64,000 nucleotides of DNA. Source: an uncultured Rhodobacterales bacterium (GTDB taxonomy: Bacteria > Pseudomonadota > Alphaproteobacteria > Rhodobacterales > Rhodobacteraceae). Position 1 is the first letter of the stretch. Each line of letters opens with the position of its first letter. Shown here one piece after another: positions 47,850 to 59,187 of the stretch. The stretch covers positions 29,774-93,773 of the forward strand of contig CAWUIQ010000007.1 of assembly GCA_963922565.1 (NCBI GenBank), in the 5' to 3' direction. Under the pieces are notes generated by a model that searched no databases, was not told where the DNA came from, and saw only the letters and a program-made list of their open reading frames with translations. The translations under genes and the position numbers were made by a program.

Positions 47850-48971
47850 TCAGGCAGTGTGGAGGTTCCAACTCGTCCAGGCGGACGTTGAAAGACCCGC
47901 TATCGCCTTGGTCCAAGCCTGAACCATCAAATTGCGCGATGCGTCCGGGGTAATCTGGGACAAAGTCTCCGTCTGTCCTGAGGCGAAGAGATCGATCACC
48001 GCTTGTTGCACTGCTCGGTTGCGAGGAAGGGCGCCATGAGCCACCCCCGGTGCATACCATCTTGCGACGCCGGCAAGATGGCTGGTCTGCCAGGGTACGC
48101 GGCCATCGCCTGCGCCAGTGGTCAGGATGTGCAAGCCGGATGCCGTGGCCTTCAGGCCGATCGGCGTTGCGGCAGCCTGGCCAGAGATCATCACTATGCG
48201 CCCTGCATCCTCTTTCCGCAGAATCATGTCCTGTCTCAGGGTCTGCGCGGCTTGAAGCGCCTCCTTTGGTGGAGGTGTCCACCCGGCTGGCGTTGCTGCT
48301 TCCAGTGGCTCCCATGAATGCGGCTGCAGATAGTCCGTGCCCCAACCGGAGGGCAGCAGCTCAAGAAACCCGGGCAGTTGGCCGAGCAAGGCAAGCGTTG
48401 ATGCGGCGGCTCTTGATCCAACACAGGTCCGCAACGTCCTGATCAAAGGACCATGCCCAAGCAGAGTCCGCACAATCGACATTGAGCCGCCATTGGGTGT
48501 CCCGAGCATCGTCAGCAGCGCACCGGATTTGGCATTGCACAAACGTTCCCACGTGTCGCGATGCCGCGCGATCATGACTCGGGCAAGCATCCCGCCCATT
48601 GAATGGCCGAGCAAACGAATGGGTTGGTCCGATCCTTTCAGTCTGGACAATACCAGCCGGACAGCTTGATCGAGATGACGCGCCTCATCGGCCAGAGAGC
48701 GGCGCCAATCATAGGCAAACTCGATGACATCAGCTGTTTGGCGCAAGCGGGCTGACAGCGCGGTGTAGGGTCCGTTCACCAGACCCAATGGCAGAATGCC
48801 GGGACGATCAATAGCGAGGTGTGTCGCTCCACTCGCAATGAGGCTGAGCGGCGATGGCCAGACCTCGCGCCGGTCGCAAACCAGCCGGCTGCCCATCAAT
48901 CCGGGCAGCAAAAACACGACAGGCCGCTTGCCCGAAATGGCTTGAATTTGTGAATAAATATCTTGCCGCAT
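47850..48971 (-). CDS. alpha/beta hydrolase, LCAT/PGAP1-like lipase-esterase family
   Basis: PVVFLLPGLMGSRL near the N-terminus and the nucleophile elbow GHSMGG. The C-terminal half (about 180 aa) matches no family I recognise. The start is ATG 48971 or GTG 48986. Confidence 0.65.
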   Translation of the reverse strand: MRQDIYSQIQAISGKRPVVFLLPGLMGSRLVCDRREVWPSPLSLIASGATHLAIDRPGILPLGLVNGPYTALSARLRQTADVIEFAYDWRRSLADEARHLDQAVRLVLSRLKGSDQPIRLLGHSMGGMLARVMIARHRDTWERLCNAKSGALLTMLGTPNGGSMSIVRTLLGHGPLIRTLRTCVGSRAAASTLALLGQLPGFLELLPSGWGTDYLQPHSWEPLEAATPAGWTPPPKEALQAAQTLRQDMILRKEDAGRIVMISGQAAATPIGLKATASGLHILTTGAGDGRVPWQTSHLAGVARWYAPGVAHGALPRNRAVQQAVIDLFASGQTETLSQITPDASRNLMVQAWTKAIAGLSTSAWTSWNLHTA

Positions 48972-49493
48972 CAATCCCGGCCCCACTTTTTACAATCACT
49001 GCGCCGCCAGATGGCGGCAGGCGCCGGACAGTCGGAGCAAACTCCAACCATCCGGTTACCGTTCAACACGGGACCAAGTACCCAATCGCCTGATGCTCGC
49101 CAGGGAGCCGAAACCGATTCACGTCCAAAGACGCTGCCCCGGGAATTGAGGCCACTCACGGAATATGCCTGTAATTGGCTTTCGGTTCCGACGCCCTGGT
49201 TCCTTTTGAGCGTGACTTAACCTTTGGTCAGCCAAGGCCCCAAAAACAGCTCGTGAGGGTGATTTGCGGGAAAATTTGCGATTTTTTAACGATTAATAAC
49301 GCTGGCCGTCTTTGCTGACGCCGTGTTGCGGCAAATCGGCGGTGGCAAACTGGCGAAATCGTTAACAAACTCGGTCCAGCGTTCGACGGCAATGGCCAGC
49401 TGCTCCCAAACGTCATCGTGTTTCGGAAGGCCAAGGTTCTATGCCGCGCCCAAGCGCCGCCAGTGTTGACCCGATTTAGTCGTCGGGCCGGGG

Positions 49494-50564
49494 CTATGCT
49501 TCGATTATGGCCGAAAGGATCGCCGCCTCTGCGTCCTTGGTGTCCGCCGTGCCGGCCAGATCCCGCGTCCGCGTGTCCGCCCGTTCTATGCTGCGTTCGA
49601 TAGCTTGGATCAGGACGTCGGCCGCTTGGGTTTCGCCCAGATGGTCGAGCATCATCGAGGCGCTCCAGACCGCAGCGATCGGGTTTGCCACCCCTTTCCC
49701 GGCGATATCGGGTGCCGATCCGTGAACTGGTTCGAACATCGAAGGGTGCGTGCGTTCCGGATTGATGTTGGCCGAGGGCGCGATCCCGATGGAGCCTGCG
49801 ACGGCCGGACCCAGATCCGACAGGATATCGCCGAAGAGGTTGGATCCGACGACCACATCAAACCAATCGGGGTGCTGAACGAAATGGGCCGTAAGGATAT
49901 CGATATGAAACTGGTTGGTTTCGATATCCGGATGCCGGGCCGATGCTGCCGCGAAGCGTTCGTCCCAGAATGGCATGGTGTGCACGATACCGTTCGATTT
50001 AGTGGCCGAGGTGACAAGCCGCCGGGGACGGGTCGCTGCCAGCTCAAAGGCATAGTCCATGATCCTATCGACGCCGCGCCGGGTAAAGATCGCCTCTTGG
50101 ATCGCGACCTCGTGATCGGTGCCGTGGTAAAGCCGTCCGCCTGCCTCAGAGTATTCGCCCTCAACGTTTTCGCGCACGACGATGAAATCGATGTCTTCGG
50201 GACCACGGCCTGCAAGCGGGCTTTGCACCCCGCGAAGCAGGCGGACCGGCCGGATATTGGCGTATTGATCCATCTGCCGCCTGATCGGAATGAGCAATCC
50301 CCAAAGCGAGACGTGATCGGGCACCCCGGGCCATCCGACAGCGCCGAGATAGATCGCGTCGTGGGCGCCCAGGCGGTCCATCGCGTCGTCGGGCATCATT
50401 GCGCCGGTTTCCTCGTATCGCTTGCAGGACCAGTCAAAAACTTCCCACTCGACCGCAAAGCCAAACTTGTCGGCAACCGCCTCGACGGCCCGCTGCCCGA
50501 CAGGAATGACCTCTGTCCCGATCCCGTCTCCGGGAATGGTCGCGATACTGTAACGATTGGTCAT
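49494..50564 (-). CDS. tartrate dehydrogenase/decarboxylase (isocitrate/isopropylmalate dehydrogenase family)
   Basis: 356 aa with IATIPGDGIGTEV...IDFIVVRENVEGEYS...NLFGDILSDL. Confidence 0.85.
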   Translation of the reverse strand: MTNRYSIATIPGDGIGTEVIPVGQRAVEAVADKFGFAVEWEVFDWSCKRYEETGAMMPDDAMDRLGAHDAIYLGAVGWPGVPDHVSLWGLLIPIRRQMDQYANIRPVRLLRGVQSPLAGRGPEDIDFIVVRENVEGEYSEAGGRLYHGTDHEVAIQEAIFTRRGVDRIMDYAFELAATRPRRLVTSATKSNGIVHTMPFWDERFAAASARHPDIETNQFHIDILTAHFVQHPDWFDVVVGSNLFGDILSDLGPAVAGSIGIAPSANINPERTHPSMFEPVHGSAPDIAGKGVANPIAAVWSASMMLDHLGETQAADVLIQAIERSIERADTRTRDLAGTADTKDAEAAILSAIIEA

Positions 50565-50610
50565 TGGAACATTTCTCCGGAAAGGTCGTTGAGTACTGGA
50601 TAGACCGTGG

Positions 50611-50626
50611 TTGCATATGCAATTGC
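50611..50626. promoter_or_regulatory. overlapping palindromes TTGCATATGCAA / GCAATTGC upstream of the tartrate dehydrogenase gene
   Basis: A perfect 12-bp palindrome (50611-50622) overlaps a perfect 8-bp palindrome (50619-50626), 47-62 nt upstream of the start at 50564. It is operator-like; the regulator is unknown. Confidence 0.3.
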
Positions 50627-50659
50627 AGTTGGCTTGCGTGCTTAAGCCGACCGCCCGTC

Positions 50660-50686
50660 TAGATCGTGATTAGATCGTCAAAATCC
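50660..50686 (+). promoter_or_regulatory. direct-repeat element TAGATCGT-GAT-TAGATCGT-CAAAATCC upstream of the S8 peptidase gene
   Basis: Two identical octamers have an 11-bp period, and the element ends 62 nt before the ATG at 50749. It is 22/27 identical to the element at 55172-55198 on the other strand. Confidence 0.5.
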
Positions 50687-50748
50687 CCCAGCTTTCATTG
50701 ACCTGAACGGTAAACAGATGGTTGCCTGCAGGAAAGGGGGACTGATCT

Positions 50749-52704
50749 ATGGTCAAAGAATCTGGCATTGATCCAACGGATCCATATCTCGATTGGGCAT
50801 TCTTTCTGCAGGATCGTGACAAAGCGCGGACATTCGAAGGCGAGCCTTGGGAACCGGTTCTTGTTCAACCTCTGACCGACCGGTTCTTTGCCGAAGCGGA
50901 AGAAGACGAAAACATCCTGGTGGATCCCTACGAACTGGAGCTGGGCAAACTGCTGCGGGAATACGCGGGCAGGCTGGCGCCGATCTTTATTTACCGCGTC
51001 CGGGGATATGCCCGTCTTGATGCACTCTACGAGGTGCTGTTGCGTGGCCTGCCGTCAGAGAAGTCAAAGGGCAAGACAGCCTTTGCTGCCAAAGCCGAAC
51101 CGCCATTGCTGGCCGTCATAGATGATGGTCTTGGCTTTTTGAACGAGCGCTTCCAACGAATGGAAGCAGGCGGCATGCAGACGCGGGTCGAGGCGATATG
51201 GATCCAGTCGGTCAAGCAGAATACGCCACCCTATGGCCCCTTCGGCGGAATGATCTTCGGGCGGGAATTGAGCAAGGCCGATATTCAGGCCCGTATCGGT
51301 CGCCCGGATGAAAGGCGGGCCTACAAAGAGCTGAACGAACCGGTCTTTGCCGCCGATACGGTGCGAACGGTCGAGCAGGCTGAAAGCCACGGCACCCACA
51401 TCATGGATCTGGCGGGAGGTGGTGACCCTTACGACCCGACTGATCCCATGCGGGATGTCCCGGTTGTTGGTGTTCAGCTTCCGCCGCAGATCGTTGACGA
51501 TACATCCGGCATGCGCATGGTCCCGCATATCATGCAAGCGATGCACTGGATCCTCTTCAAGGCGATCCAGCTGGGCAAATTCCATGTTGTCGTAAATCTG
51601 AGTTTTGGCGTGACAGCAGGGCCCAAGGACGGGACCAGCCTGTTCGCCACCCACACCGAGTTCCTGATCAATATCGCGCAGCTTTTCGGCATCCGGCTCG
51701 ACGTAGTGGTCCCGTTTGGCAACGACTTTGAAAGCCGCCAGGTCGCTTCGATCGATGCGCCGGTCGAGGAAAAGGTCGCTCTGGATATGCATCTGCCGTC
51801 TGACGATCGGGCGCCAAGCTATGTCGAAATCCGCCCCGAAGGAGATCCGGCGGATCTGGGTATCGGGTTCGAAGCGCCGGATGGGGCAAACATATCGATC
51901 CAGGCGCTACCTGCGAACACGTTTCGCGACATCGTCCATCGGGGCAGCGTGGTTGGGCGGGTCTACCATATTCCATCTGTTCTTGGCCGTGATCCCTATT
52001 TGATGGTCGCCTTCGCACCGACTACGCCCGTTCTCGATGATGCACTTCCGGTAAACGGCCAAGGTCCGCTTGTGCAGGCCGGGTTGTGGCAGATCGTGCT
52101 GGCCAACAGCGGCGCGCAAGCAGTGGCGGTACGGCTCGAAATCCAGCGGGGCGATACAATGCCCGGCTATCGTTTGCGCGGGCGGCAATCCTATTTCGTC
52201 GATCCCCACGGATATGAATACGACATGGGCGATCCGCCTCCGACCGGGGTCGGCAATGAAATGAAAACAAAGGATTACAGTCGCCTCGGGGTTGGCGCTT
52301 ACGTCACCCATCAAGGGACCAACAGCGCGTTTACCGTGGTTAACGGGGTTGGGGACCAGTTCCATACGGTCGGCGGTGCCTTCCTGCGGAAGATTGATCC
52401 GACCGTACCGCTTGCCGATCAGGACGATGCGGTTCCGGCCCAGTATACTTCCTATAACACTCGACCGGGCAGAGGAGATGTCACAGCCGGTGCTCGCAGT
52501 GACCATAACCGGGCACTGCCGGGCCTGCTCGCATCTGGTGTCTTGTCCGGCAGCGGTGCCCGTTTCAGCGGATCCAGCGCAGCAGCCGCAGTGGTCAGCC
52601 GCCATCTGGTGGTTCCCGGTAGTGCCGGTGGGTTCGAAGATGCGAATGCGCCGGGTCGGTTGCCGGAACAGATTTTGCGCGGATCGCCGGAGCCACGGGA
52701 CTAG
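50749..52704 (+). CDS. S8 (subtilisin-like) serine peptidase without a signal peptide and with a large internal insertion
   Basis: 651 aa with RBS AAAGGGGGA. The motifs occur in subtilase order: LAVIDDG (Asp125), SHGTHIMDLAGG (His214), VVNLSFG, FGND (Asn325), FSGSSAAAAVVS (Ser610). The N-terminus MVKESGIDPTDPYLDW is not hydrophobic. Confidence 0.8.
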   Translation: MVKESGIDPTDPYLDWAFFLQDRDKARTFEGEPWEPVLVQPLTDRFFAEAEEDENILVDPYELELGKLLREYAGRLAPIFIYRVRGYARLDALYEVLLRGLPSEKSKGKTAFAAKAEPPLLAVIDDGLGFLNERFQRMEAGGMQTRVEAIWIQSVKQNTPPYGPFGGMIFGRELSKADIQARIGRPDERRAYKELNEPVFAADTVRTVEQAESHGTHIMDLAGGGDPYDPTDPMRDVPVVGVQLPPQIVDDTSGMRMVPHIMQAMHWILFKAIQLGKFHVVVNLSFGVTAGPKDGTSLFATHTEFLINIAQLFGIRLDVVVPFGNDFESRQVASIDAPVEEKVALDMHLPSDDRAPSYVEIRPEGDPADLGIGFEAPDGANISIQALPANTFRDIVHRGSVVGRVYHIPSVLGRDPYLMVAFAPTTPVLDDALPVNGQGPLVQAGLWQIVLANSGAQAVAVRLEIQRGDTMPGYRLRGRQSYFVDPHGYEYDMGDPPPTGVGNEMKTKDYSRLGVGAYVTHQGTNSAFTVVNGVGDQFHTVGGAFLRKIDPTVPLADQDDAVPAQYTSYNTRPGRGDVTAGARSDHNRALPGLLASGVLSGSGARFSGSSAAAAVVSRHLVVPGSAGGFEDANAPGRLPEQILRGSPEPRD

Positions 52705-52741
52705 GCCCCGATCGCCGGAAGAGTGTTCCGAACCGGCGTCG

Positions 52742-53827
52742 TTACGCCAGGACGCTTTCCACCGGTCGCCGCAACGACATGGGCAGGGCGGGGGCGCGGC
52801 CAAAGCGTACAATGAGGTCTGGCCGGATGTCCGGCATCCCAAGCCAACTCGCGAATTCGGCCCTGACGGCTGGCACCTCGACCGGTTGATTGATGTGGGC
52901 GTTTCGAATGCCCATGGTCGTAGCCTGCAACGCAAATCGTTCGAAACTGCGGCCCACGTTGATCCAATGCTCCGGGTCGGCCCGGTCTCCGATGAACACG
53001 GCTATGCCTGCTGATGATCGGATTTGATCCCGATAATTGGTATTTTCGGTGTCCTTGGTGAAAAAGGCCCGAAACATCGGCCCACCAAGCCATTCTGGGA
53101 CAACCGGGTTTCCTGAACAGGCGCTAAAAAGCCCATCTCCGCTGGCGATTGCGCGGCTCGGGCTGAACCTGATCCATTCGCGCAGTTCATCGACGAAAGC
53201 TGGGTCATCCATCTGCGCGCTGTTGCCTTCGACCACGAGGTCAAGAATGGCCTCACGGTCTGGTTCATCGGTGAAGAACAGCACTGAAACGCCGTCTTGC
53301 CGCGCTGCACCTTGCAGCGTTTCGATCTCTGATGCTGCAAGCGGCTGGCCGTCAAAGATCGAACGAGTGGATTGGCGAAGGGGTATGGCCTGATAGAGGC
53401 TGTCATCCGACGGTGGGCCTTGATCAAGCATGATATCGATCGATGGTTCTGCGTCGGTGTTGATCAATACCTCAGCCATGCGCCCATGGGCCCCCGCGGC
53501 CTGGATCAGGTTCTCTGCAGCACAGCCAAGGCTGACGAAAAGATGGTGGTCGTCGGGATCGACGACCTCGGTCCGGCGTGCGTAATCAGGCAAGATGCGG
53601 ATGCTGTTACTGCCAAGAAGGAAACTCCACGGCTGGGTATTATGACCGTTGGCCGCCAGTGTTGCCATCCGAACGAACTCCACAAGATCCGGATCGGACT
53701 GGATGAGCTGGCGCTGGTATGCCAATTCCTCGTCATATTTGTTCAGCCTCGGCCACAGGCCATAGCCCAGGCCGCCGATGGCAGCAGCCCACAGGCCCGA
53801 AACCATGAATTGTCGGCGGGAAATCAT
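52742..53827 (-). CDS. nitroreductase-superfamily FMN protein with a twin-arginine (Tat) signal
   Basis: Start taken at the ATG at 53827 (RBS GAGG). MISRRQFMVSGLWAAAIGGLGYG is a Tat signal. ...AANGHNTQPW... and a duplicated nitroreductase-like fold pattern are present. Confidence 0.8.
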   Translation of the reverse strand: MISRRQFMVSGLWAAAIGGLGYGLWPRLNKYDEELAYQRQLIQSDPDLVEFVRMATLAANGHNTQPWSFLLGSNSIRILPDYARRTEVVDPDDHHLFVSLGCAAENLIQAAGAHGRMAEVLINTDAEPSIDIMLDQGPPSDDSLYQAIPLRQSTRSIFDGQPLAASEIETLQGAARQDGVSVLFFTDEPDREAILDLVVEGNSAQMDDPAFVDELREWIRFSPSRAIASGDGLFSACSGNPVVPEWLGGPMFRAFFTKDTENTNYRDQIRSSAGIAVFIGDRADPEHWINVGRSFERFALQATTMGIRNAHINQPVEVPAVRAEFASWLGMPDIRPDLIVRFGRAPALPMSLRRPVESVLA

Positions 53828-53973
53828 TCCGGGCCTCAATCACGATTGTTCTTCAAGCGAAGGCTTTTCTAGTGCCCTGAGTGAGCCGTGGGGAATGATC
53901 TCGGTCAATGACGGACCGCTTTGAGCAGCCCGTCAAGCGATTGGTAGCTAAAAATGCGCGGGCTTTGAGCGGC

Positions 53974-55098
53974 TTAGGGCCGCTCCGCGAGCGCAGCGTG
54001 CCAGGCGCTTGTGATCAGGTTCCGTTTCGGCGGTGTGTCAGCGATCAGCGCCTGGTTTGTCGTCGTCGCATGGGTCAAAGCCGCATGAACCTGCAACAGA
54101 CTGAAATCTTCCTGCAGATCGGCCGGGCGACCTACCGCATAGGTGGGTGTTTGCTCGGCCCCCTTGAGGATGTTGATCAGAGCTTCGCCCATGGCGATAC
54201 CCAAAACAGCACCAACCAGATTGTCAGCCGGGAAATGGACGCCGCCAACGGTGCGATTGACTGCGATCCGCTCAGCGACGCGGAAGGCATGGCTTTGCGC
54301 CTGAACGGCCGCTGTGGCGCTGAACATCGTGGTGTCACCTGGGCCGGATGCGTCCATCAGCCCTTCCATAAAGGCGGCAAGCGCGAATGCCTCGGTCGCA
54401 TGACCACTGGGCAAGGTTCGGTGCGACGGGGTCTGGATGATGGGCATCATCTGCGGCGCATAGTCGATTGGCCGGGGCACGTTGAAGTACATCTTGAGCG
54501 GCATAACCATATAACCGACTGCGCGCACAAGCGCCGCCATGAGCTCCAGTGTCCATCGCGTGCCACGATCATCGAGGTATAGTGTCGCGCCGAAGAATGA
54601 CGTGATGTCGTCAATCTGCTCAAGGATCTCTTCGAGCCTGTCCGGGCGAATGTCAGCATCGTTGCGCACGAAACGGAGTTGGTCCGCGAATGCAGCGTTG
54701 TTCCCGGGGCGTGTGATGGTCACCAGCGGGTCGTTGGCCGGATTGAGGTAGGAACAGAATACATCGGCAATCCCGTCCTTGGTGCCAACCCCCCGACCCT
54801 CGACCGAGAAAGCGCCGAAAATCACGTCATCCAGAACGACCTGCCGGGGGATATCGCCCAACTTGTTCAGCTGCAGCCAATCGACGGCGTAAAAGTTGTT
54901 GTCGGCCGGGATGCGTGTTGGCGTCATATCCCACTTGCCGCGAATTCCTTCGGCCGTGGTCATCAGAGCAACGCTGAGGCTGGTGGAGCTTTCGCCGCCT
55001 GCGTGATCGTCAAGACCGGTTGCTTTGCCCGCTTTGCCGGCTTTTCCAGCCTTTCCCGCTTTGCCGGCCTTACCCGCCTTTCCTGCTTTACCAGCCAT
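53974..55098 (-). CDS. soluble PAP2 / vanadium-haloperoxidase-like protein with an N-terminal (AGK)x8 tail
   Basis: Track ORF trimmed to the ATG at 55098. The complete acid-phosphatase/haloperoxidase motif set is visible: KMYFNVPRP (K-X6-RP), PSGHA, and NRTVGGVHFPAD (R-X5-H-X3-D). No TM helices or Sec signal were seen. Confidence 0.75.
   Translation of the reverse strand: MAGKAGKAGKAGKAGKAGKAGKAGKATGLDDHAGGESSTSLSVALMTTAEGIRGKWDMTPTRIPADNNFYAVDWLQLNKLGDIPRQVVLDDVIFGAFSVEGRGVGTKDGIADVFCSYLNPANDPLVTITRPGNNAAFADQLRFVRNDADIRPDRLEEILEQIDDITSFFGATLYLDDRGTRWTLELMAALVRAVGYMVMPLKMYFNVPRPIDYAPQMMPIIQTPSHRTLPSGHATEAFALAAFMEGLMDASGPGDTTMFSATAAVQAQSHAFRVAERIAVNRTVGGVHFPADNLVGAVLGIAMGEALINILKGAEQTPTYAVGRPADLQEDFSLLQVHAALTHATTTNQALIADTPPKRNLITSAWHAALAERP
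55024..55095 (-). repeat. 8 tandem 9-nt units encoding (Ala-Gly-Lys)x8
   Basis: Minus strand: GCTGGTAAA GCAGGAAAG GCGGGTAAG GCCGGCAAA GCGGGAAAG GCTGGAAAA GCCGGCAAA GCGGGCAAA. The peptide repeat is perfect, but the units differ at synonymous positions. Confidence 0.9.
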
Positions 55099-55171
55099 TT
55101 TTGATCCCCCTGACCTACATAAAACTGAGAGCAGCTTTACGTTAAGCTGGCCGTGGTGCAATCTGCGGCTC

Positions 55172-55198
55172 GAAATTTAACGATCTATTCACGATCTC
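55172..55198 (-). promoter_or_regulatory. direct-repeat element GAGATCGT-GAA-TAGATCGT-TAAATTTC upstream of the PAP2-like gene
   Basis: Read on the minus strand. The octamers have an 11-bp period, and the element ends 73 nt before the ATG at 55098. It lies 45 nt from the divergent SARP-like regulator start. Confidence 0.5.
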
Positions 55199-55242
55199 TG
55201 GGGGGAACCGTCGGGGCAATACAACCTTAGGACGGTTGGTTT

Positions 55243-56793
55243 ATGTCAGAACCCGTTTTGAGAATTCAGTTTTTTGGGCCATTCGTTGCAACGGCAGCGG
55301 ATGGATCGGACGTGACACCCAAAAGCCGAAAGGGGCAAGGGGTGCTTGCTCTGCTCGCCAGCAGCAACGACATGCGCCGCAGCAGGCGGATCCTGGAACA
55401 GACATTGTGGAGCGATCGCAGCCCGCAGCAGGCGGGAGGGAGCCTGCGCCAAACCCTGACCGAGTTACGCAAGGCGCTGGCCCCCTGTGGCGACATCCTT
55501 GGTTCGGATCGGACGGCTGTCTGGTTGGATCAGTCTGTCATCGAAACGGATCTTGGGACGGATGCTGCGGACAAAGAACCGTTCCTCGAAGACCTGAACA
55601 TCCGCGACCCGGCTTTTGTAGAATGGCGTGATCGCATCCGGCCCAAACCGCGGCCGGCTTTGCCGCCCGGCGCGCAGCCGGGGGTCCGGTTCCGCTGTGT
55701 TGGCAACGGTTCAAATGGTGGGGTTATCGGGTCCATCGTCGCAGATCAGCTGGGCCATTCGCTGCAAGAGCATTTGACGTCATGGATGGTCGACCGCGAA
55801 GGCGACGTGCTCGTCAAATGCGATCTCGCCGAACTCGGTCTCAGCAACGTGCTGACGGTGCGGGTCACCCATGAATTTACGGGCACCGTGCTTTATTCAG
55901 GCTTTCGGGAGTTCCAGGGGGATCCGTCGCAGGCGCTGGTTGCCGGTTTCCTGACTGAGCTCGTCCACGAAACGGTCGGACGCGTTGTCGCGAGCCTGCC
56001 CCGCGTTTTGGGTCTCGATCGTCCCGAGGTGGTCGCCGCCGGGTTTGCAAACGTGGCTTTGAACCGACTTGCATCCTTCGAAAAGGACAAGCTGGTCGAG
56101 GCCGACGATCTTTTTGCCCGGGCCCACGGGACGGATGGGAACGGCGTTTATCTGGCCTGGCAGGCCTTCGTCCGGATGGCACAGGTCGTTGACCATCATG
56201 CCGAGGCACCCCGTGCGTTGCTGGAAGAGGTCGAGGGTCTGCTCAGCCGCTCGCTGGAAAACGCGCCGAGAAACTCGGTAGCACTTTCGCTGGTCTCTCT
56301 GACGCGCAACATGCTTTTTGACGACTACAGCACGGCGGTGGAGCTGGCAGAGATAGCGACCCGGCTGAACAGCAACGGTTTGCTTGCCAAACAGTCGCTT
56401 GCCGTGGCTGGTGCGGCTGAGGCTGACCCTCAAACTGCATACCGCGCCTCGCGCCTGTGTCAGGCGGCTCTCGGGGCGGATGGGCTGCGTCACCTGTGGG
56501 ATCTCTATCACGCCCTTGTCTGCATCCGCGCCGGTCAGCTGAACGAGGCGACGCAAGCCGCCGAGCGGGCTGCGCGCAGCAGCGAGTCGTTCGTCGCGCC
56601 AAGGCGGCAACTGCTGAGCCTTTATCTTGCCGCCGGGCAAGAAGATGCTGCCGCGCAGGTCTTGGAAGAGCTGAAGGCGCTTGAACCGTCATTCGAGCTT
56701 GATCGCTATTTTCACGATGAAAGCTATCCGGTTCTGACCCTCAGAGACGCCGGGCTGTTGCAGCAATCGGCGAGGATTGTCGGGCGGGGTTGA
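55243..56793 (+). CDS. SARP/OmpR-PhoB-type winged-helix transcriptional regulator with a C-terminal helical (TPR-like) domain
   Basis: 516 aa. The N-terminus LRIQFFGPFVATAADGSDVTPKSRKGQGVLALLASSNDMRRSRRILEQTLWSDRSPQQAGGSLRQTLTELRKAL matches the SARP-type wHTH pattern. The remainder is alpha-helical and Ala/Leu-rich. Confidence 0.75.
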   Translation: MSEPVLRIQFFGPFVATAADGSDVTPKSRKGQGVLALLASSNDMRRSRRILEQTLWSDRSPQQAGGSLRQTLTELRKALAPCGDILGSDRTAVWLDQSVIETDLGTDAADKEPFLEDLNIRDPAFVEWRDRIRPKPRPALPPGAQPGVRFRCVGNGSNGGVIGSIVADQLGHSLQEHLTSWMVDREGDVLVKCDLAELGLSNVLTVRVTHEFTGTVLYSGFREFQGDPSQALVAGFLTELVHETVGRVVASLPRVLGLDRPEVVAAGFANVALNRLASFEKDKLVEADDLFARAHGTDGNGVYLAWQAFVRMAQVVDHHAEAPRALLEEVEGLLSRSLENAPRNSVALSLVSLTRNMLFDDYSTAVELAEIATRLNSNGLLAKQSLAVAGAAEADPQTAYRASRLCQAALGADGLRHLWDLYHALVCIRAGQLNEATQAAERAARSSESFVAPRRQLLSLYLAAGQEDAAAQVLEELKALEPSFELDRYFHDESYPVLTLRDAGLLQQSARIVGRG

Positions 56794-56968
56794 GAAGGCG
56801 GAGCTCGTCGTCTGCGCGAGGTCGCCCGGCGCCATCTGTTTAGCCATCAGTAAAGCAAGTCCCACCGGCAGAACCAGAACCACCATTTGCCAATGGATCG
56901 GGTGGGGCCACCGCCCTGAATGTTCAGCGTGAGCCTAAGCCTCTAAAGGCATTGATGAAAGCGCCTAT

Positions 56969-56982
56969 ACCGATTGATCGGT
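56969..56982. promoter_or_regulatory. palindrome ACCGAT-TG-ATCGGT upstream of the pyruvyl-transferase-like gene
   Basis: Perfect 6-bp arms about 77 nt upstream of the ATG at 57059. Function unknown. Confidence 0.2.
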
Positions 56983-57058
56983 GGTTTGCACCGGGTCGGA
57001 AACTGCGATACCGACGGCGGGACGGACCTCAAGACAGAGATTGGAGCGAGTGCCTGCA

Positions 57059-58174
57059 ATGACCAAAACAGTCGCGTTTATCGGCACGGAAGGTGGCGTT
57101 TCTTTCAGTGGTCTTGGCTTTGAAACGGCCCTTCAGAAGATCGGCCAAAACACTGGCAATGCCTTGTTTCAAAGCGCAATGTGGCGGCTTATCCGAAACC
57201 CGAAAATGGCGATTGGTATAGGCACTTCCGTTGAACTCGTGAGAGAGGTTGCGGATCTGCTGGTCATACCGGCAGCCAATCAAGTCAATCCCGCATGGGA
57301 CCTTTCGGCTTGGGCGACATTTGTCGAGTCAATTGATCTCCCGATTGTCTGCATAGGCTTGGGAGCGCAAGCGCATGTCGGTGCGGGAACCCGCCTGAAC
57401 CTTCAGCCGGGAACAGAACGCTATTTGAAGGTGGTCGCCGAAAGGACGACGACGATAGGTGTTCGCGGGAAGTACACACAAGACGTTCTGGCCGACATTG
57501 GGATCGAAAACACTGAGGTTACGGGTTGTCCGTCTCAAACCATCAACAATCGCGTGCGAGGTCGAACCATCCAAGAACAGATTGATGGTTTTGCGCATAT
57601 CGAGAACCCAAAGCTGGGTTATGTCCTTGGGACGTTGGAAGAACAGGCGCGCGATACGGACCGGTATCTTGCCGGGCTGGTTCGTGATTTAGATCATCAG
57701 CTGATTTTGCAGACGGATCCAAGATTGATGGGCTTGATCCACCAACGTGACAAGACGATAGCAGACATGGATTATTTGGGCTGGATCGCTCAAATTCTAC
57801 GGCCTGACTTGGATGGGCCTCAATTCGCTGACTATCTGCTGCAGCATGGTGTTTTCTATTCCGATGCGCGCACATGGATTGATTCAATGCGTCGGACAGA
57901 TCTTGTCTTGGGTCTGCGGATCCACGGTGCGGTCGCCGCAATTCAGGCAGAGAAGCTTGGCATATGTGTCGCATTCGATAGTCGGACCCTCGAGCTGGCA
58001 CACACTATGGGATATCCTTACATTCGGGCAGATGACATTCGGCAAGGGATGGACCTTGCAGATATCGTTGCGGCGTCAGAGTTCTCATCCGATCGCTTTG
58101 ATCACTTACGGGTCAAGAAGAGAGAGCTCATAAGATCGATACTTCTCGATGCGGGTTGTCTGATTTCGGACTAA
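57059..58174 (+). CDS. polysaccharide pyruvyl transferase-family protein
   Basis: Trimmed to the ATG at 57059, giving 371 aa. The N-terminal ...GQNTGNALFQSA... and the overall pattern resemble the CsaB/WcaK-type pyruvyl transferases. The call is from memory. Confidence 0.6.
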   Translation: MTKTVAFIGTEGGVSFSGLGFETALQKIGQNTGNALFQSAMWRLIRNPKMAIGIGTSVELVREVADLLVIPAANQVNPAWDLSAWATFVESIDLPIVCIGLGAQAHVGAGTRLNLQPGTERYLKVVAERTTTIGVRGKYTQDVLADIGIENTEVTGCPSQTINNRVRGRTIQEQIDGFAHIENPKLGYVLGTLEEQARDTDRYLAGLVRDLDHQLILQTDPRLMGLIHQRDKTIADMDYLGWIAQILRPDLDGPQFADYLLQHGVFYSDARTWIDSMRRTDLVLGLRIHGAVAAIQAEKLGICVAFDSRTLELAHTMGYPYIRADDIRQGMDLADIVAASEFSSDRFDHLRVKKRELIRSILLDAGCLISD

Positions 58175-58266
58175 GTCGTTTCTCTGACCGCCCTGCGGTT
58201 AGGAATTTGCTGGCGCATCTGCAAGGTTGTAGTGCCCCGGCCAAGGGCTGCAGGAGCCGGGCGGCG

Positions 58267-59187
58267 TTACAGCTTGCCGTTTGCCGCTGCCCAATAGAGT
58301 GTCAACTGTCCAAGCGCTCCGTGCCTGCGCAAGCCCGCGCGTAGGATCAAATACAATCGCCGGAGCATTCTGCTGTCCCGCGCGACCCGAAATTTATTCA
58401 TGATATCAATTGCCTGAGGCGAGAGCTGGTCCTCGATCAGATCCAGCGTCGCGAGGTTTGTTGTGATCCAATGTTGGTAGGTTCCATTCCTTACCAATGC
58501 GGCTCTGTTCTTCATGGCGTTTGGTCGACGAGCGTCACCGAGCACGCTTCCGCCATGTTGCCGATAAAGTAATGTCGGTTCAGCGTCGAAAATGACGGTT
58601 CCGCCGACTGCGCTGATAACCTGATAAAGCCACAGATCATGTGCGGAGATGCCTTCGACCATGAGTGCCAGTTCCCTAACGATCTTGAAGGCTTCTTTGT
58701 TGAGAACCTGAGTATTTCCTCCGGCAAAGTTCTGAACCAGGGCATGCCTGAAGTCGAATGGGGGGCGCATGAGCCTTGAGAGGTACATCGGACGCAGGTT
58801 GGCGTCGCAAACCGTTGTCCTCGAACCATAGAGGGCGGGCTTACGTCTCACCTCAGACAAAGATCTCGCTGCACGCTCGAGCTTATCTGGCAGCCAAACA
58901 TCGTCCTGATCGCAGAGCGCTACGAACTCGCTTTCGCTGGGTTGGCGCAGTAGTTTCAGGAAGTTACCATCCGAGCCGGAACCCGGTCCATCGAGCAATA
59001 CGGCCTCGCAGTCGGGCCAGGCCTCCATGAACCGCAAGAAGATCGTCTTTGTGTCGTCCGAAGAGCCGTCGTCACTCGCCACGATACGACGTGGCCTCAG
59101 GGTTTGGGCCTTAAGGCTCGTCAACTGCTCAGTGAGATGATCCGCACCATTGTACAACGCCAGGAGCACAGTCACGGAAGTATTCAT
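58267..59187 (-). CDS. family 2 glycosyltransferase
   Basis: 306 aa with VTVLLALYNGADHL...SDDGSSDDT...CDQDDVW (DxD). Confidence 0.85.
   Translation of the reverse strand: MNTSVTVLLALYNGADHLTEQLTSLKAQTLRPRRIVASDDGSSDDTKTIFLRFMEAWPDCEAVLLDGPGSGSDGNFLKLLRQPSESEFVALCDQDDVWLPDKLERAARSLSEVRRKPALYGSRTTVCDANLRPMYLSRLMRPPFDFRHALVQNFAGGNTQVLNKEAFKIVRELALMVEGISAHDLWLYQVISAVGGTVIFDAEPTLLYRQHGGSVLGDARRPNAMKNRAALVRNGTYQHWITTNLATLDLIEDQLSPQAIDIMNKFRVARDSRMLRRLYLILRAGLRRHGALGQLTLYWAAANGKL

Follow-up and report, generated by a model that had tools for sequence, protein, structure and literature searches.

Several families of described regulators have features in common with the locus considered here. The SARPs of Actinobacteria (AfsR, DnrI, ActII-ORF4, EmbR) combine an OmpR-type winged helix with binding sites made of direct repeats with an 11-bp period, and their genes lie beside their targets; the repeats of both SARPs and PhoB replace the −35 element. 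In this work, we analysed a 64,000-nt stretch of DNA (hereafter the window) from an uncultured Rhodobacterales bacterium (contig CAWUIQ010000007.1), where two similar 27-bp elements precede the gene of an S8 protease-like protein and that of a PAP2-superfamily protein, the latter being divergent from the gene of a 516-aa regulator. Comparative analysis indicates that the 27-mers are probably operators of this adjacent regulator, which would activate the genes of the Csp-like protease and the PAP2 protein and probably control its own synthesis as well.

Besides the features it has in common with the SARPs, the locus differs from them in several respects: the regulator is devoid of BTAD, the −35 is not replaced by the repeats, which stand two to four helical turns ahead of a −35-like box, the hosts are Proteobacteria, and the targets are hydrolases, not a biosynthetic gene cluster. 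One-component regulators of the ToxR/CadC type resemble our regulator in other ways. The DNA-binding domain of ToxR is its best profile match, the sites of these proteins are located upstream of the −35, and the C-terminal α/β and helical part of the regulator gives Foldseek matches to the periplasmic domain of CadC (3ly7/3ly8), although generic TPR proteins score better. Unlike ToxR and CadC, however, the regulator has no transmembrane helix, bears a long TPR superhelix as a sensor, and has other targets. The RRNPP regulators of Firmicutes (Rap/NprR/PlcR/PrgX) also bear a DNA-binding domain of the helix-turn-helix type fused to a TPR sensor, and their peptide ligands are made by subtilisin-type proteases. 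The resemblance here is one of parts only: their helix-turn-helix belongs to the XRE type, whereas ours is a winged helix, no gene for a secreted precursor peptide is present at our locus, and all its parts are predicted to be cytoplasmic.

A winged-helix activator acting on a direct-repeat operator is a known kind of system. What appears to be undescribed in the searched literature is the regulator family, its motif and promoter geometry, the fixed partnership of the PAP2 and Csp-like proteins, the exchange of the output domain between a winged helix and a cyclase, and the hypervariable N-terminal repeat of the PAP2 protein. A preliminary description of the locus, made from the window alone, had pointed to no described system with this composition, and we likewise found no published description of the module in the literature searched.

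The two 27-bp elements and their conserved core

The elements and the three genes that they adjoin are located in the window as follows.

50660–50686, plus strand: candidate operator 1, upstream of the S8-like gene, with half-sites CGTGA (50665–50669) and CGTCA (50676–50680) in an 11-bp period, followed by an A-tract
55172–55198, minus strand: candidate operator 2, in the divergent PAP2/regulator intergenic region, with half-sites CGTGA and CGTTA
50749–52704, plus strand: predicted Csp-like subtilase (divergent S8), 651 aa, no signal peptide, presumed triad D125/H214/S610 and N283
53974–55098, minus strand: soluble PAP2-superfamily protein, 374 aa, with the motifs K-x6-RP, PSGH and (S/N)R-x5-H-x3-D and an N-terminal (AGK)8
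55243–56793, plus strand: regulator, 516 aa, with a predicted winged helix (about 1–100), an α/β domain (148–225) and a TPR superhelix (236–516), no membrane segment

As read directly from the window, the element on the S8 side is TAGATCGTGATTAGATCGTCAAAATCC, while that on the PAP2 side is GAGATCGTGAATAGATCGTTAAATTTC, the reverse complement of 55172–55198 (i.e., 55198–55172 of the minus strand). The two are identical at 22 of 27 bases, and each contains an octamer twice with an 11-bp period, the octamers of the second copy agreeing at seven of eight positions. The coordinates, the identity and the period given in the preliminary description all held on re-reading the sequence, and so did the distances: 62 nt separate the first copy from the ATG of the S8 gene (50749), 73 nt the second copy from the ATG of the PAP2 gene (55098), and 134 nt the PAP2 stop from the start of a nitroreductase gene. 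Only the distance from the second copy to the regulator ATG (55243) measured 44 nt instead of 45. The exact tandem AGATCGT-N4-AGATCGT is found at just two places in the 64-kb window, both of them the sites described, and the next-best candidates need three mismatches. The heptamer AGATCGT is itself frequent, occurring 29 times in the window vs. 8.4 ± 2.7 expected from dinucleotide-preserving shuffles. We estimate from the heptamer counts that about 0.007 exact tandems should arise by chance; the two that are seen are therefore far above chance. The single AGATCGT copies are located mostly within open reading frames, with codon or dipeptide bias as the likely cause.

Loci with homologous genes are designated below as L001 to L038. 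The exact octamer is confined to L001 and L002 among related loci, and the octamer scan was first read as poor conservation of the element. This reading was rejected, because a comparison of the S8-upstream and PAP2-upstream regions within each genome showed the conserved part to be CGTnA alone, most loci having CGTnA-N6-CGTnA as their best common stretch. When one genome per species was scanned with the alignment of the regulator, we obtained 30 related loci, all from Rhodobacteraceae or unclassified relatives, and the core conserved in them is CGTnA-N6-CGTnAAA. A Gibbs-type de novo motif search with random starts was then applied to 32 upstream regions of 16 loci, the window and L001 being left out. 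It converged on nnnCGTnAnnnnnnCGTnAAAwnn in 31 of the 32 regions, with a total of 700 bits vs. 344–361 bits in ten shuffled sets. In the form of this core, the element is indeed conserved next to orthologous genes in related genomes.

A position matrix was trained on other genera only, again without the window and its 98% relative L001. It scored the two window sites at 20.3 bits (S8 side) and 21.0 bits (PAP2 side), and nothing else in the window reached 15 bits. With this threshold, both strands of 580 kb were scanned, covering about 20 kb around each homologue. Of the 59 hits of at least 15 bits, 44 occupy the expected S8-upstream or regulator/PAP2 intergenic positions, and several others precede genes of accessory hydrolases or peroxidases. 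The S8-like genes of 16 other loci have an orthologous site before them, and about 25 loci have a site 40–80 nt upstream of the regulator gene. Six of these 25 have an unrelated same-strand gene upstream and no PAP2 or S8 gene nearby, and the site still precedes the regulator gene, which ties the motif to the regulator and suggests autoregulation. The proposal that the element is a conserved cis-element linking the S8 and PAP2 genes to the regulator is thus strengthened: about 25 loci have both the element and the regulator gene, and loci with a cyclase in place of the winged helix lack the element.

An Rfam search at E ≤ 1 over 47–58 kb of the window gave no structured RNA. Megablast of 50400–57000 against PLSDB gave no match, the base composition is flat, and neither indicated that the region stems from a plasmid or is of mobile origin.

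The regulator and its enzyme partners

The AlphaFold2 model of the regulator (predicted local distance difference test, pLDDT, 89.3) comprises a winged-helix-like N-terminus, an α/β domain and a TPR superhelix. Residues 10–100, with pLDDT >90, form a β-sheet, three helices and a wing hairpin. The profile built from 14 homologues for the N-terminal 135 residues matched ToxR (3e-4), AfsR (3e-3) and EmbR (5.5e-3) in the PDB; all of the top seven matches are OmpR/PhoB-type winged-helix domains, and nothing unrelated scored better. Profile and model thus agree with the OmpR/ToxR/SARP-type winged helix that had been proposed for the N-terminus. In hidden Markov model searches, this domain was seen less well: Pfam gave weak TPR matches only, Trans_reg_C stayed below the threshold (see below), and BTAD (PF03704) gave no match even at E ≤ 10. 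Lacking BTAD, and with the order winged helix, CadC-like α/β domain, TPR, the protein, which had been taken for a SARP-type regulator, is no SARP in the narrow sense, although one of its homologues is named ‘AfsR/SARP family’ by NCBI.

With Foldseek, TPR proteins were the best matches of the regulator model, and the CadC periplasmic domain (3ly7/3ly8) was matched with E ~3e-4 and template modelling (TM) scores of 0.25/0.37 over about 335 columns. No hydrophobic segment was found in the regulator (the maximum Kyte–Doolittle value in a 19-residue window is 1.15); therefore, the whole protein is predicted to be cytoplasmic. Residues S67, L68, R69 and Q70 of the recognition-helix region are invariant. 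The family is large, comprising 356 clusters at 50% identity (E ≤ 1e-30). Taken together, these data allow us to regard the regulator as a predicted soluble one-component protein with a ToxR/CadC/SARP-like winged helix and a TPR sensor. Two related genes occur in other settings. In Marinovum algicola FF3 (L016, 19414–19770), another open reading frame, 8 kb from the regulator gene, encodes an N-terminal domain resembling that of the regulator (38% identity over 125 aa), while at L037 (124–5312) a 31%-identical regulator homologue lies beside genes for a PP2C phosphatase, a TagF-like protein and large proteins resembling those of type VI secretion systems, the contig ending before its upstream region.

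The S8-like protein of the window itself had no Pfam match, though many of its homologues carry PF00082. In 23 homologues, D125, H214 and S610 are invariant and N283 is nearly so. The family profile matched the Csp germination proteases in the PDB (1.4e-18), and the AlphaFold2 model (pLDDT 79.7) retrieved CspB, CspA and CspC as the top Foldseek hits (CspB, 1.3e-18, TM-scores 0.47/0.64). Hence the S8 assignment made earlier, for which Pfam offered nothing on the protein itself, finds support in profile, fold and the invariant Asp/His/Ser triad, and by the same evidence the protein is a predicted Csp-like subtilase. Like CspB, CspA and CspC of Clostridia, its best matches in both profile and fold, it would be an intracellular subtilase with extra domains. 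It differs from them in sequence (13–16% identity), in its non-sporulating proteobacterial host, and in its genomic context, where no gene for a SleC-like substrate is found. To our knowledge, Csp-like subtilases have been known only from clostridial spore germination. CspB is a site-specific processing enzyme that activates its zymogen by a single cut, and by analogy one may guess that the protease considered here is also a site-specific processing enzyme, possibly with the N-terminal extension of the PAP2 protein as its substrate.

The PAP2 gene begins with an ATG at 55098 that follows a GGGGGA ribosome-binding site. Its product matches PF01569 (2.5e-14) and retains the invariant residues K202, R209, P210, P230, S231, G232, H233, R282, H288 and D292, with N281 in place of Ser. 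In the PDB, its profile matched the soluble acid phosphatase 7f17 (8.5e-19), LpxE (1.3e-11) and, at 2.8e-10 and weaker, vanadium bromoperoxidases; weak matches to Pfam VCPO_2nd are on record for some homologues. The protein had been labelled haloperoxidase-like. Its place in the PAP2 superfamily, with the full motif set, is supported, while the profile favours the soluble acid phosphatase, so the protein, phosphatase-like by motifs and profile, looks more like the soluble acid phosphatases than the vanadium haloperoxidases. A word-indexed search for PAP2 homologues was swamped by the low-complexity repeat described below and missed the closest relatives.

In PMC13431035 (2026), 7F17 is the type of a ‘diffusible PAP2’ clade, one of several such clades, and roles in biological conflict are proposed for diffusible PAP2 proteins; the Lipocone paper deals with PAP2 only in passing. 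Our protein has the clade of 7F17 as its best PDB match and shares with it the full set of phosphatase motifs. Unlike the 7F17 clade, it has an extra N-terminal region of about 130 aa that opens with a tandem peptide repeat, and its gene is fixed beside those of a protease and a TPR sensor, a context absent from the part of PMC13431035 that is accessible.

55022–55096, minus strand: 9-bp DNA tandem repeat (found with TRF) encoding the M-(AGK)8 start of the PAP2 protein

Every PAP2 orthologue (L001–L038) has a short peptide repeated in tandem directly behind the start codon, and the sequence of this repeat varies: we found (AGK), (AGR), (AGQAGR), (AGH), (QSQ), (GGH), (GGR), (GGV) and (QPHR), as well as (GGGGA), (GDH), (GAF) and (GHG). 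Some public annotations start the PAP2 gene after the repeat, miss it, or call it in another frame (L036). This ever-present, hypervariable N-terminal repeat is the most unusual feature of the locus.

The arrangement S8 (plus), PAP2 (minus), regulator (plus) is kept in about 20 of the 30 loci, where regulator identities range from 36 to 98%. In more distant Alphaproteobacteria with 27–31% regulator identity (Labrenzia sp. PHM005 and three metagenomic contigs), the regulator gene is again divergent from PAP2, with a Csp-like S8 gene nearby. From these comparisons, a conserved module of three genes emerges, encoding the regulator, the PAP2 protein with its repeat and the Csp-like protease.

In Betaproteobacteria (Inhella sp. 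and a metagenomic contig), S8 homologues led to operons in which a class III cyclase-TPR gene is followed by genes for a 400-aa PAP2-like protein and an S8-like protein.

L031 4988–9986 and L033 4794–10031: betaproteobacterial operons for cyclase-TPR, PAP2 with repeat and Csp-like S8

Their PAP2-like proteins match that of the window at 2e-21 and 2e-32, and the cyclase protein aligned with residues 145–491 of the regulator profile (hhalign probability 97.4%, E 9e-12, 339 columns). These cyclases have a homologous α/β and TPR sensor and the same adjacent partners as our regulator; they differ from it in having a cyclase output in place of the winged helix, a single operon, and no CGTnA repeat motif, the matrix giving no match of at least 11 bits at L031 and L033. 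Since the sensor, PAP2 and S8 are all kept in this variant, the two enzymes are tied to the sensor itself and not only to the DNA-binding output. To judge by these loci, the DNA motif goes with the winged helix, whereas the association of the two enzymes with the sensor does not depend on the output domain. On one alphaproteobacterial contig (L035, 3084–5039), a cyclase-TPR gene and a winged-helix regulator gene both lie beside the module.

Promoter geometry and mode of regulation

Almost all promoters have a TTGAC box after the repeat. The interval between the second CGT (its C) and TTGAC (its first T) was measured in 32 promoters, over a range of 10–70 bp downstream. Nearly all occurrences (22 of 24) fall at 21–22 bp (two), 31–32 bp (13) or 42–43 bp (seven); the binomial p for this phasing is about 1e-20, a value that ignores the relatedness of the loci and is inflated by it. 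The distant loci L035 (21 bp) and L036 (31 bp) fall into the same classes. The boxes in the window are as follows.

50698–50703, plus strand: −35-like hexamer TTGACC, 22 bp downstream of the C of the second CGT of operator 1
55156–55161, minus strand: −35-like hexamer TTGCAC, 21 bp downstream of the second CGT of operator 2, in the same phasing class as the S8 promoter

The repeat thus sits two, three or four helical turns upstream of a conserved TTGAC −35-like box. Such integral spacing corresponds to class-I activator geometry, unlike that of SARPs and PhoB, and in sequence terms the arrangement fits better with an upstream activator site than with SARP-style replacement of the −35. The preliminary description had placed the repeats around the −35, which is not the case: they lie 21–22 bp upstream of the box in the window and, elsewhere, 31–32 or 42–43 bp upstream of TTGAC. 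We also asked whether TTGAC might be a half-site in inverted orientation, given that CGTCAA reads TTGACG on the other strand. This idea was rejected, because the CG of true half-sites is nearly invariant, while the sixth base of the box varies freely (C, A, T, G).

On the regulator strand of many loci, the proximal half-site reads as TTGCGA or TTGACG, with TAAGCT, TATCAT or TTCCAT 16–17 nt downstream; in such loci, the operator would overlap the regulator's own −35. In the window, a weak 5-bp hairpin (CAACC-TTAGGAC-GGTTG, 55222–55238, plus strand), possibly due to chance, spans the probable ribosome-binding site immediately ahead of the regulator ATG.

These data suggest the following mechanism. 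Two or three winged helices of the regulator would bind head-to-tail to CGTnA half-sites one helical turn apart, on the same face of the DNA as the TTGAC −35 box and an integral number of turns upstream of it (in the window two turns, at about −71 to −48). From this position, the regulator would activate the genes of the Csp-like subtilase and the PAP2-like protein in a class-I-like manner. As the PAP2-side operator is on or next to the regulator's own promoter, the regulator probably also controls itself. A weaker site before the gene of an LCAT-like hydrolase may bring the hydrolase into the regulon, and the nitroreductase gene, probably a recent insertion, would at most be co-transcribed with PAP2.

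Several observations weigh against this interpretation. No convincing −10 hexamer was seen downstream of the TTGAC boxes, so that transcription starts are placed by inference, and in the window the regulator's own promoter does not fit the −35/−10 spacing found at other loci. Trans_reg_C matched the regulator with E 0.043 and 14 bits, below the Pfam cut-off of 26. A clear motif was not seen at the distant homologous loci L030, L034 and L038. The orientation of the sites is mixed, pointing toward S8 and PAP2 and away from the regulator gene and several accessory genes, and kinship among the loci inflates simple statistics. A generic promoter/terminator scan at the three promoters gave nothing useful.

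The operator may belong to the regulator and yet serve for repression, with release of the protein by a ligand derepressing the genes. Many loci have −35-like hexamers of the regulator promoter overlapping with the site on the PAP2 side, as is typical of negative autoregulation, and the TTGAC boxes are reasonable −35 elements that might work without an activator. However, the S8 and PAP2 sites lie 21–43 bp upstream of the −35-like box without overlapping it, and their helical phase with the box is the signature of an upstream activator, not of a steric repressor. It is also established that winged helices of the OmpR/ToxR/SARP type acting on direct repeats are mostly activators. Repression is hence unlikely, though it deserves consideration.

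There is only a slim chance that some other transcription factor, encoded elsewhere, binds the motif and that the winged-helix TPR protein is a co-regulated member of the module. The sub-threshold DNA-binding domain of the regulator would agree with this, and the scans covered about 20 kb around each homologue, which makes a genome-wide regulon of another factor conceivable. But the motif accompanies the regulator gene at 40–80 nt upstream in about 25 loci, even without other genes of the module nearby, and is absent where a cyclase replaces the winged helix; moreover, an 11-bp direct repeat is what such winged helices bind, and the invariance of the CGT core is matched by that of the S67 L68 R69 Q70 region. 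Local duplication or a chance repeat without function, for which the over-representation of AGATCGT in the window (29 vs. 8.4 expected) could be invoked, has next to no probability, given that the core, the 11-bp spacing, the A-tract and the TTGAC phasing recur before both genes across genera with fully diverged flanks and that the real set reached 700 bits vs. about 350 in shuffled ones; protein identities of 36–72% argue against recent horizontal copies of one element.

Variable members of the predicted regulon and biological meaning

In the window, activation by the regulator might extend to genes outside the conserved core, for which the following features were considered.

52742–53839, minus strand: Acg/Rv3131-family flavin mononucleotide oxidoreductase (nitroreductase fold, NF047509), with a twin-arginine signal, between S8 and PAP2
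49260–49294, minus strand: candidate third, weaker operator, CGTTA-N6-CGCAA-N7-CGCAA, half-sites spaced 11 and 12 bp, about 280 nt upstream of the LCAT-like gene
47850–48986, minus strand: LCAT/PGAP1-like α/β hydrolase (GHSMGG), Pfam LCAT 7e-9

The nitroreductase fold was correctly recognised in the preliminary description: the protein matches NF047509 over residues 55–364 with 292 bits (cut-off 199, E 5.8e-87). Its inclusion in a four-gene unit has to be abandoned, however. Among 38 loci, the nitroreductase gene is present in the window and L001 only, while the rest, L002 (72% regulator identity) among them, have S8 and PAP2 as immediate convergent neighbours; S8, PAP2 and the regulator stay together in about 20 of 30 loci, so the co-occurrence proposed for four genes holds for three. 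The gene has no site of its own, as no matrix site was found in the 134-nt gap after PAP2 (53840–53973). No terminator-like site was seen after PAP2, so read-through from the PAP2 promoter into the nitroreductase gene is possible. To judge by its distribution, the gene is a recent lineage-specific insertion outside the conserved core.

The third site qualifies the earlier statement that the window holds no other tandem copy, which is true of the exact tandem and overlooks this degenerate one. Its two overlapping matrix scores, 13.6 and 11.5 bits, are the next best in the window and alone do not exceed the shuffled maxima; a strict triple-repeat pattern misses it, since the spacing is 11 + 12 bp. 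The same 11 + 12 triple repeat also precedes the orthologous hydrolase gene in L001 and L002, where this gene adjoins the regulator, with a 16.9-bit site upstream in L002. The LCAT-like hydrolase is therefore a possible accessory member of the regulon in the lineage of the window. The long leader between the third site and the LCAT-like gene contains short conserved blocks (e.g., CAATTACAGGC).

Other loci have other accessory genes. Canonical S8 protease genes with a strong site upstream are located just before the S8-like gene in L022 (4463–5986) and L029 (4525–6048). In L005 (11716–13230), a gene for an S1-like (trypsin-fold-like) protease with a strong site upstream comes just after the regulator; its homologue in L026 (1616–2521) has no site of at least 15 bits. 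The sites in L005, L022 and L029 point away from the accessory protease gene. Haem-peroxidase-like genes preceded by an operator-like site were found in L003 (7579–8778), L035 (10730–12526) and L036 (from 14740), and further homologues in L019 (5011–6270) and L021 (2826–3800), with Pfam An_peroxidase matches in L035 and L036; no such gene is present in the window. The data neither favour nor contradict the oxidative or halogenative chemistry, coupled to proteolytic processing, that was suggested in the preliminary description: the PAP2 protein resembles a phosphatase more closely, but peroxidase-like genes do belong to the predicted regulon of other genomes. The predicted regulon is thus composed of variable, putatively cytoplasmic hydrolases and oxidoreductases around a fixed core of PAP2 and the Csp-like protease.

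None of the four window proteins (S8-like, nitroreductase, PAP2-like and regulator) matched the PADLOC anti-phage defence models at E ≤ 0.01. Just downstream of the regulator (56981–59187) lie genes for a polysaccharide pyruvyl transferase and a family-2 glycosyltransferase with a lower G+C content (0.53–0.55), probably an exopolysaccharide cluster unrelated to the module.

A more speculative idea, to which we give only a small chance, is that the three proteins make up a cytoplasmic signalling device, where the protease would cut the repeat-bearing N-terminus of the PAP2 protein and the TPR sensor would read the repeat or the released peptides, the output being transcription through the winged helix or a cyclic-nucleotide signal through the cyclase. 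If so, it would be a proteobacterial intracellular analogue of the peptide-sensing TPR regulators, its ligand being a hypervariable repeat on an enzyme. Should the module be a signalling or conflict system, the operator would provide an immediate handle for finding the inducing signal; should it be neither, it would still represent a clean, well-supported new regulon.

In this work, a TPR sensor was found, in two classes of Proteobacteria, to be consistently accompanied by a predicted soluble PAP2 enzyme and a predicted Csp-like subtilase, and its output appears swappable between DNA binding and a nucleotide cyclase. Marine Rhodobacteraceae are important in algal blooms and ocean carbon cycling, and for a large uncharacterised regulator family common in these bacteria the analysis provides a candidate DNA motif, a promoter geometry and a predicted set of targets.

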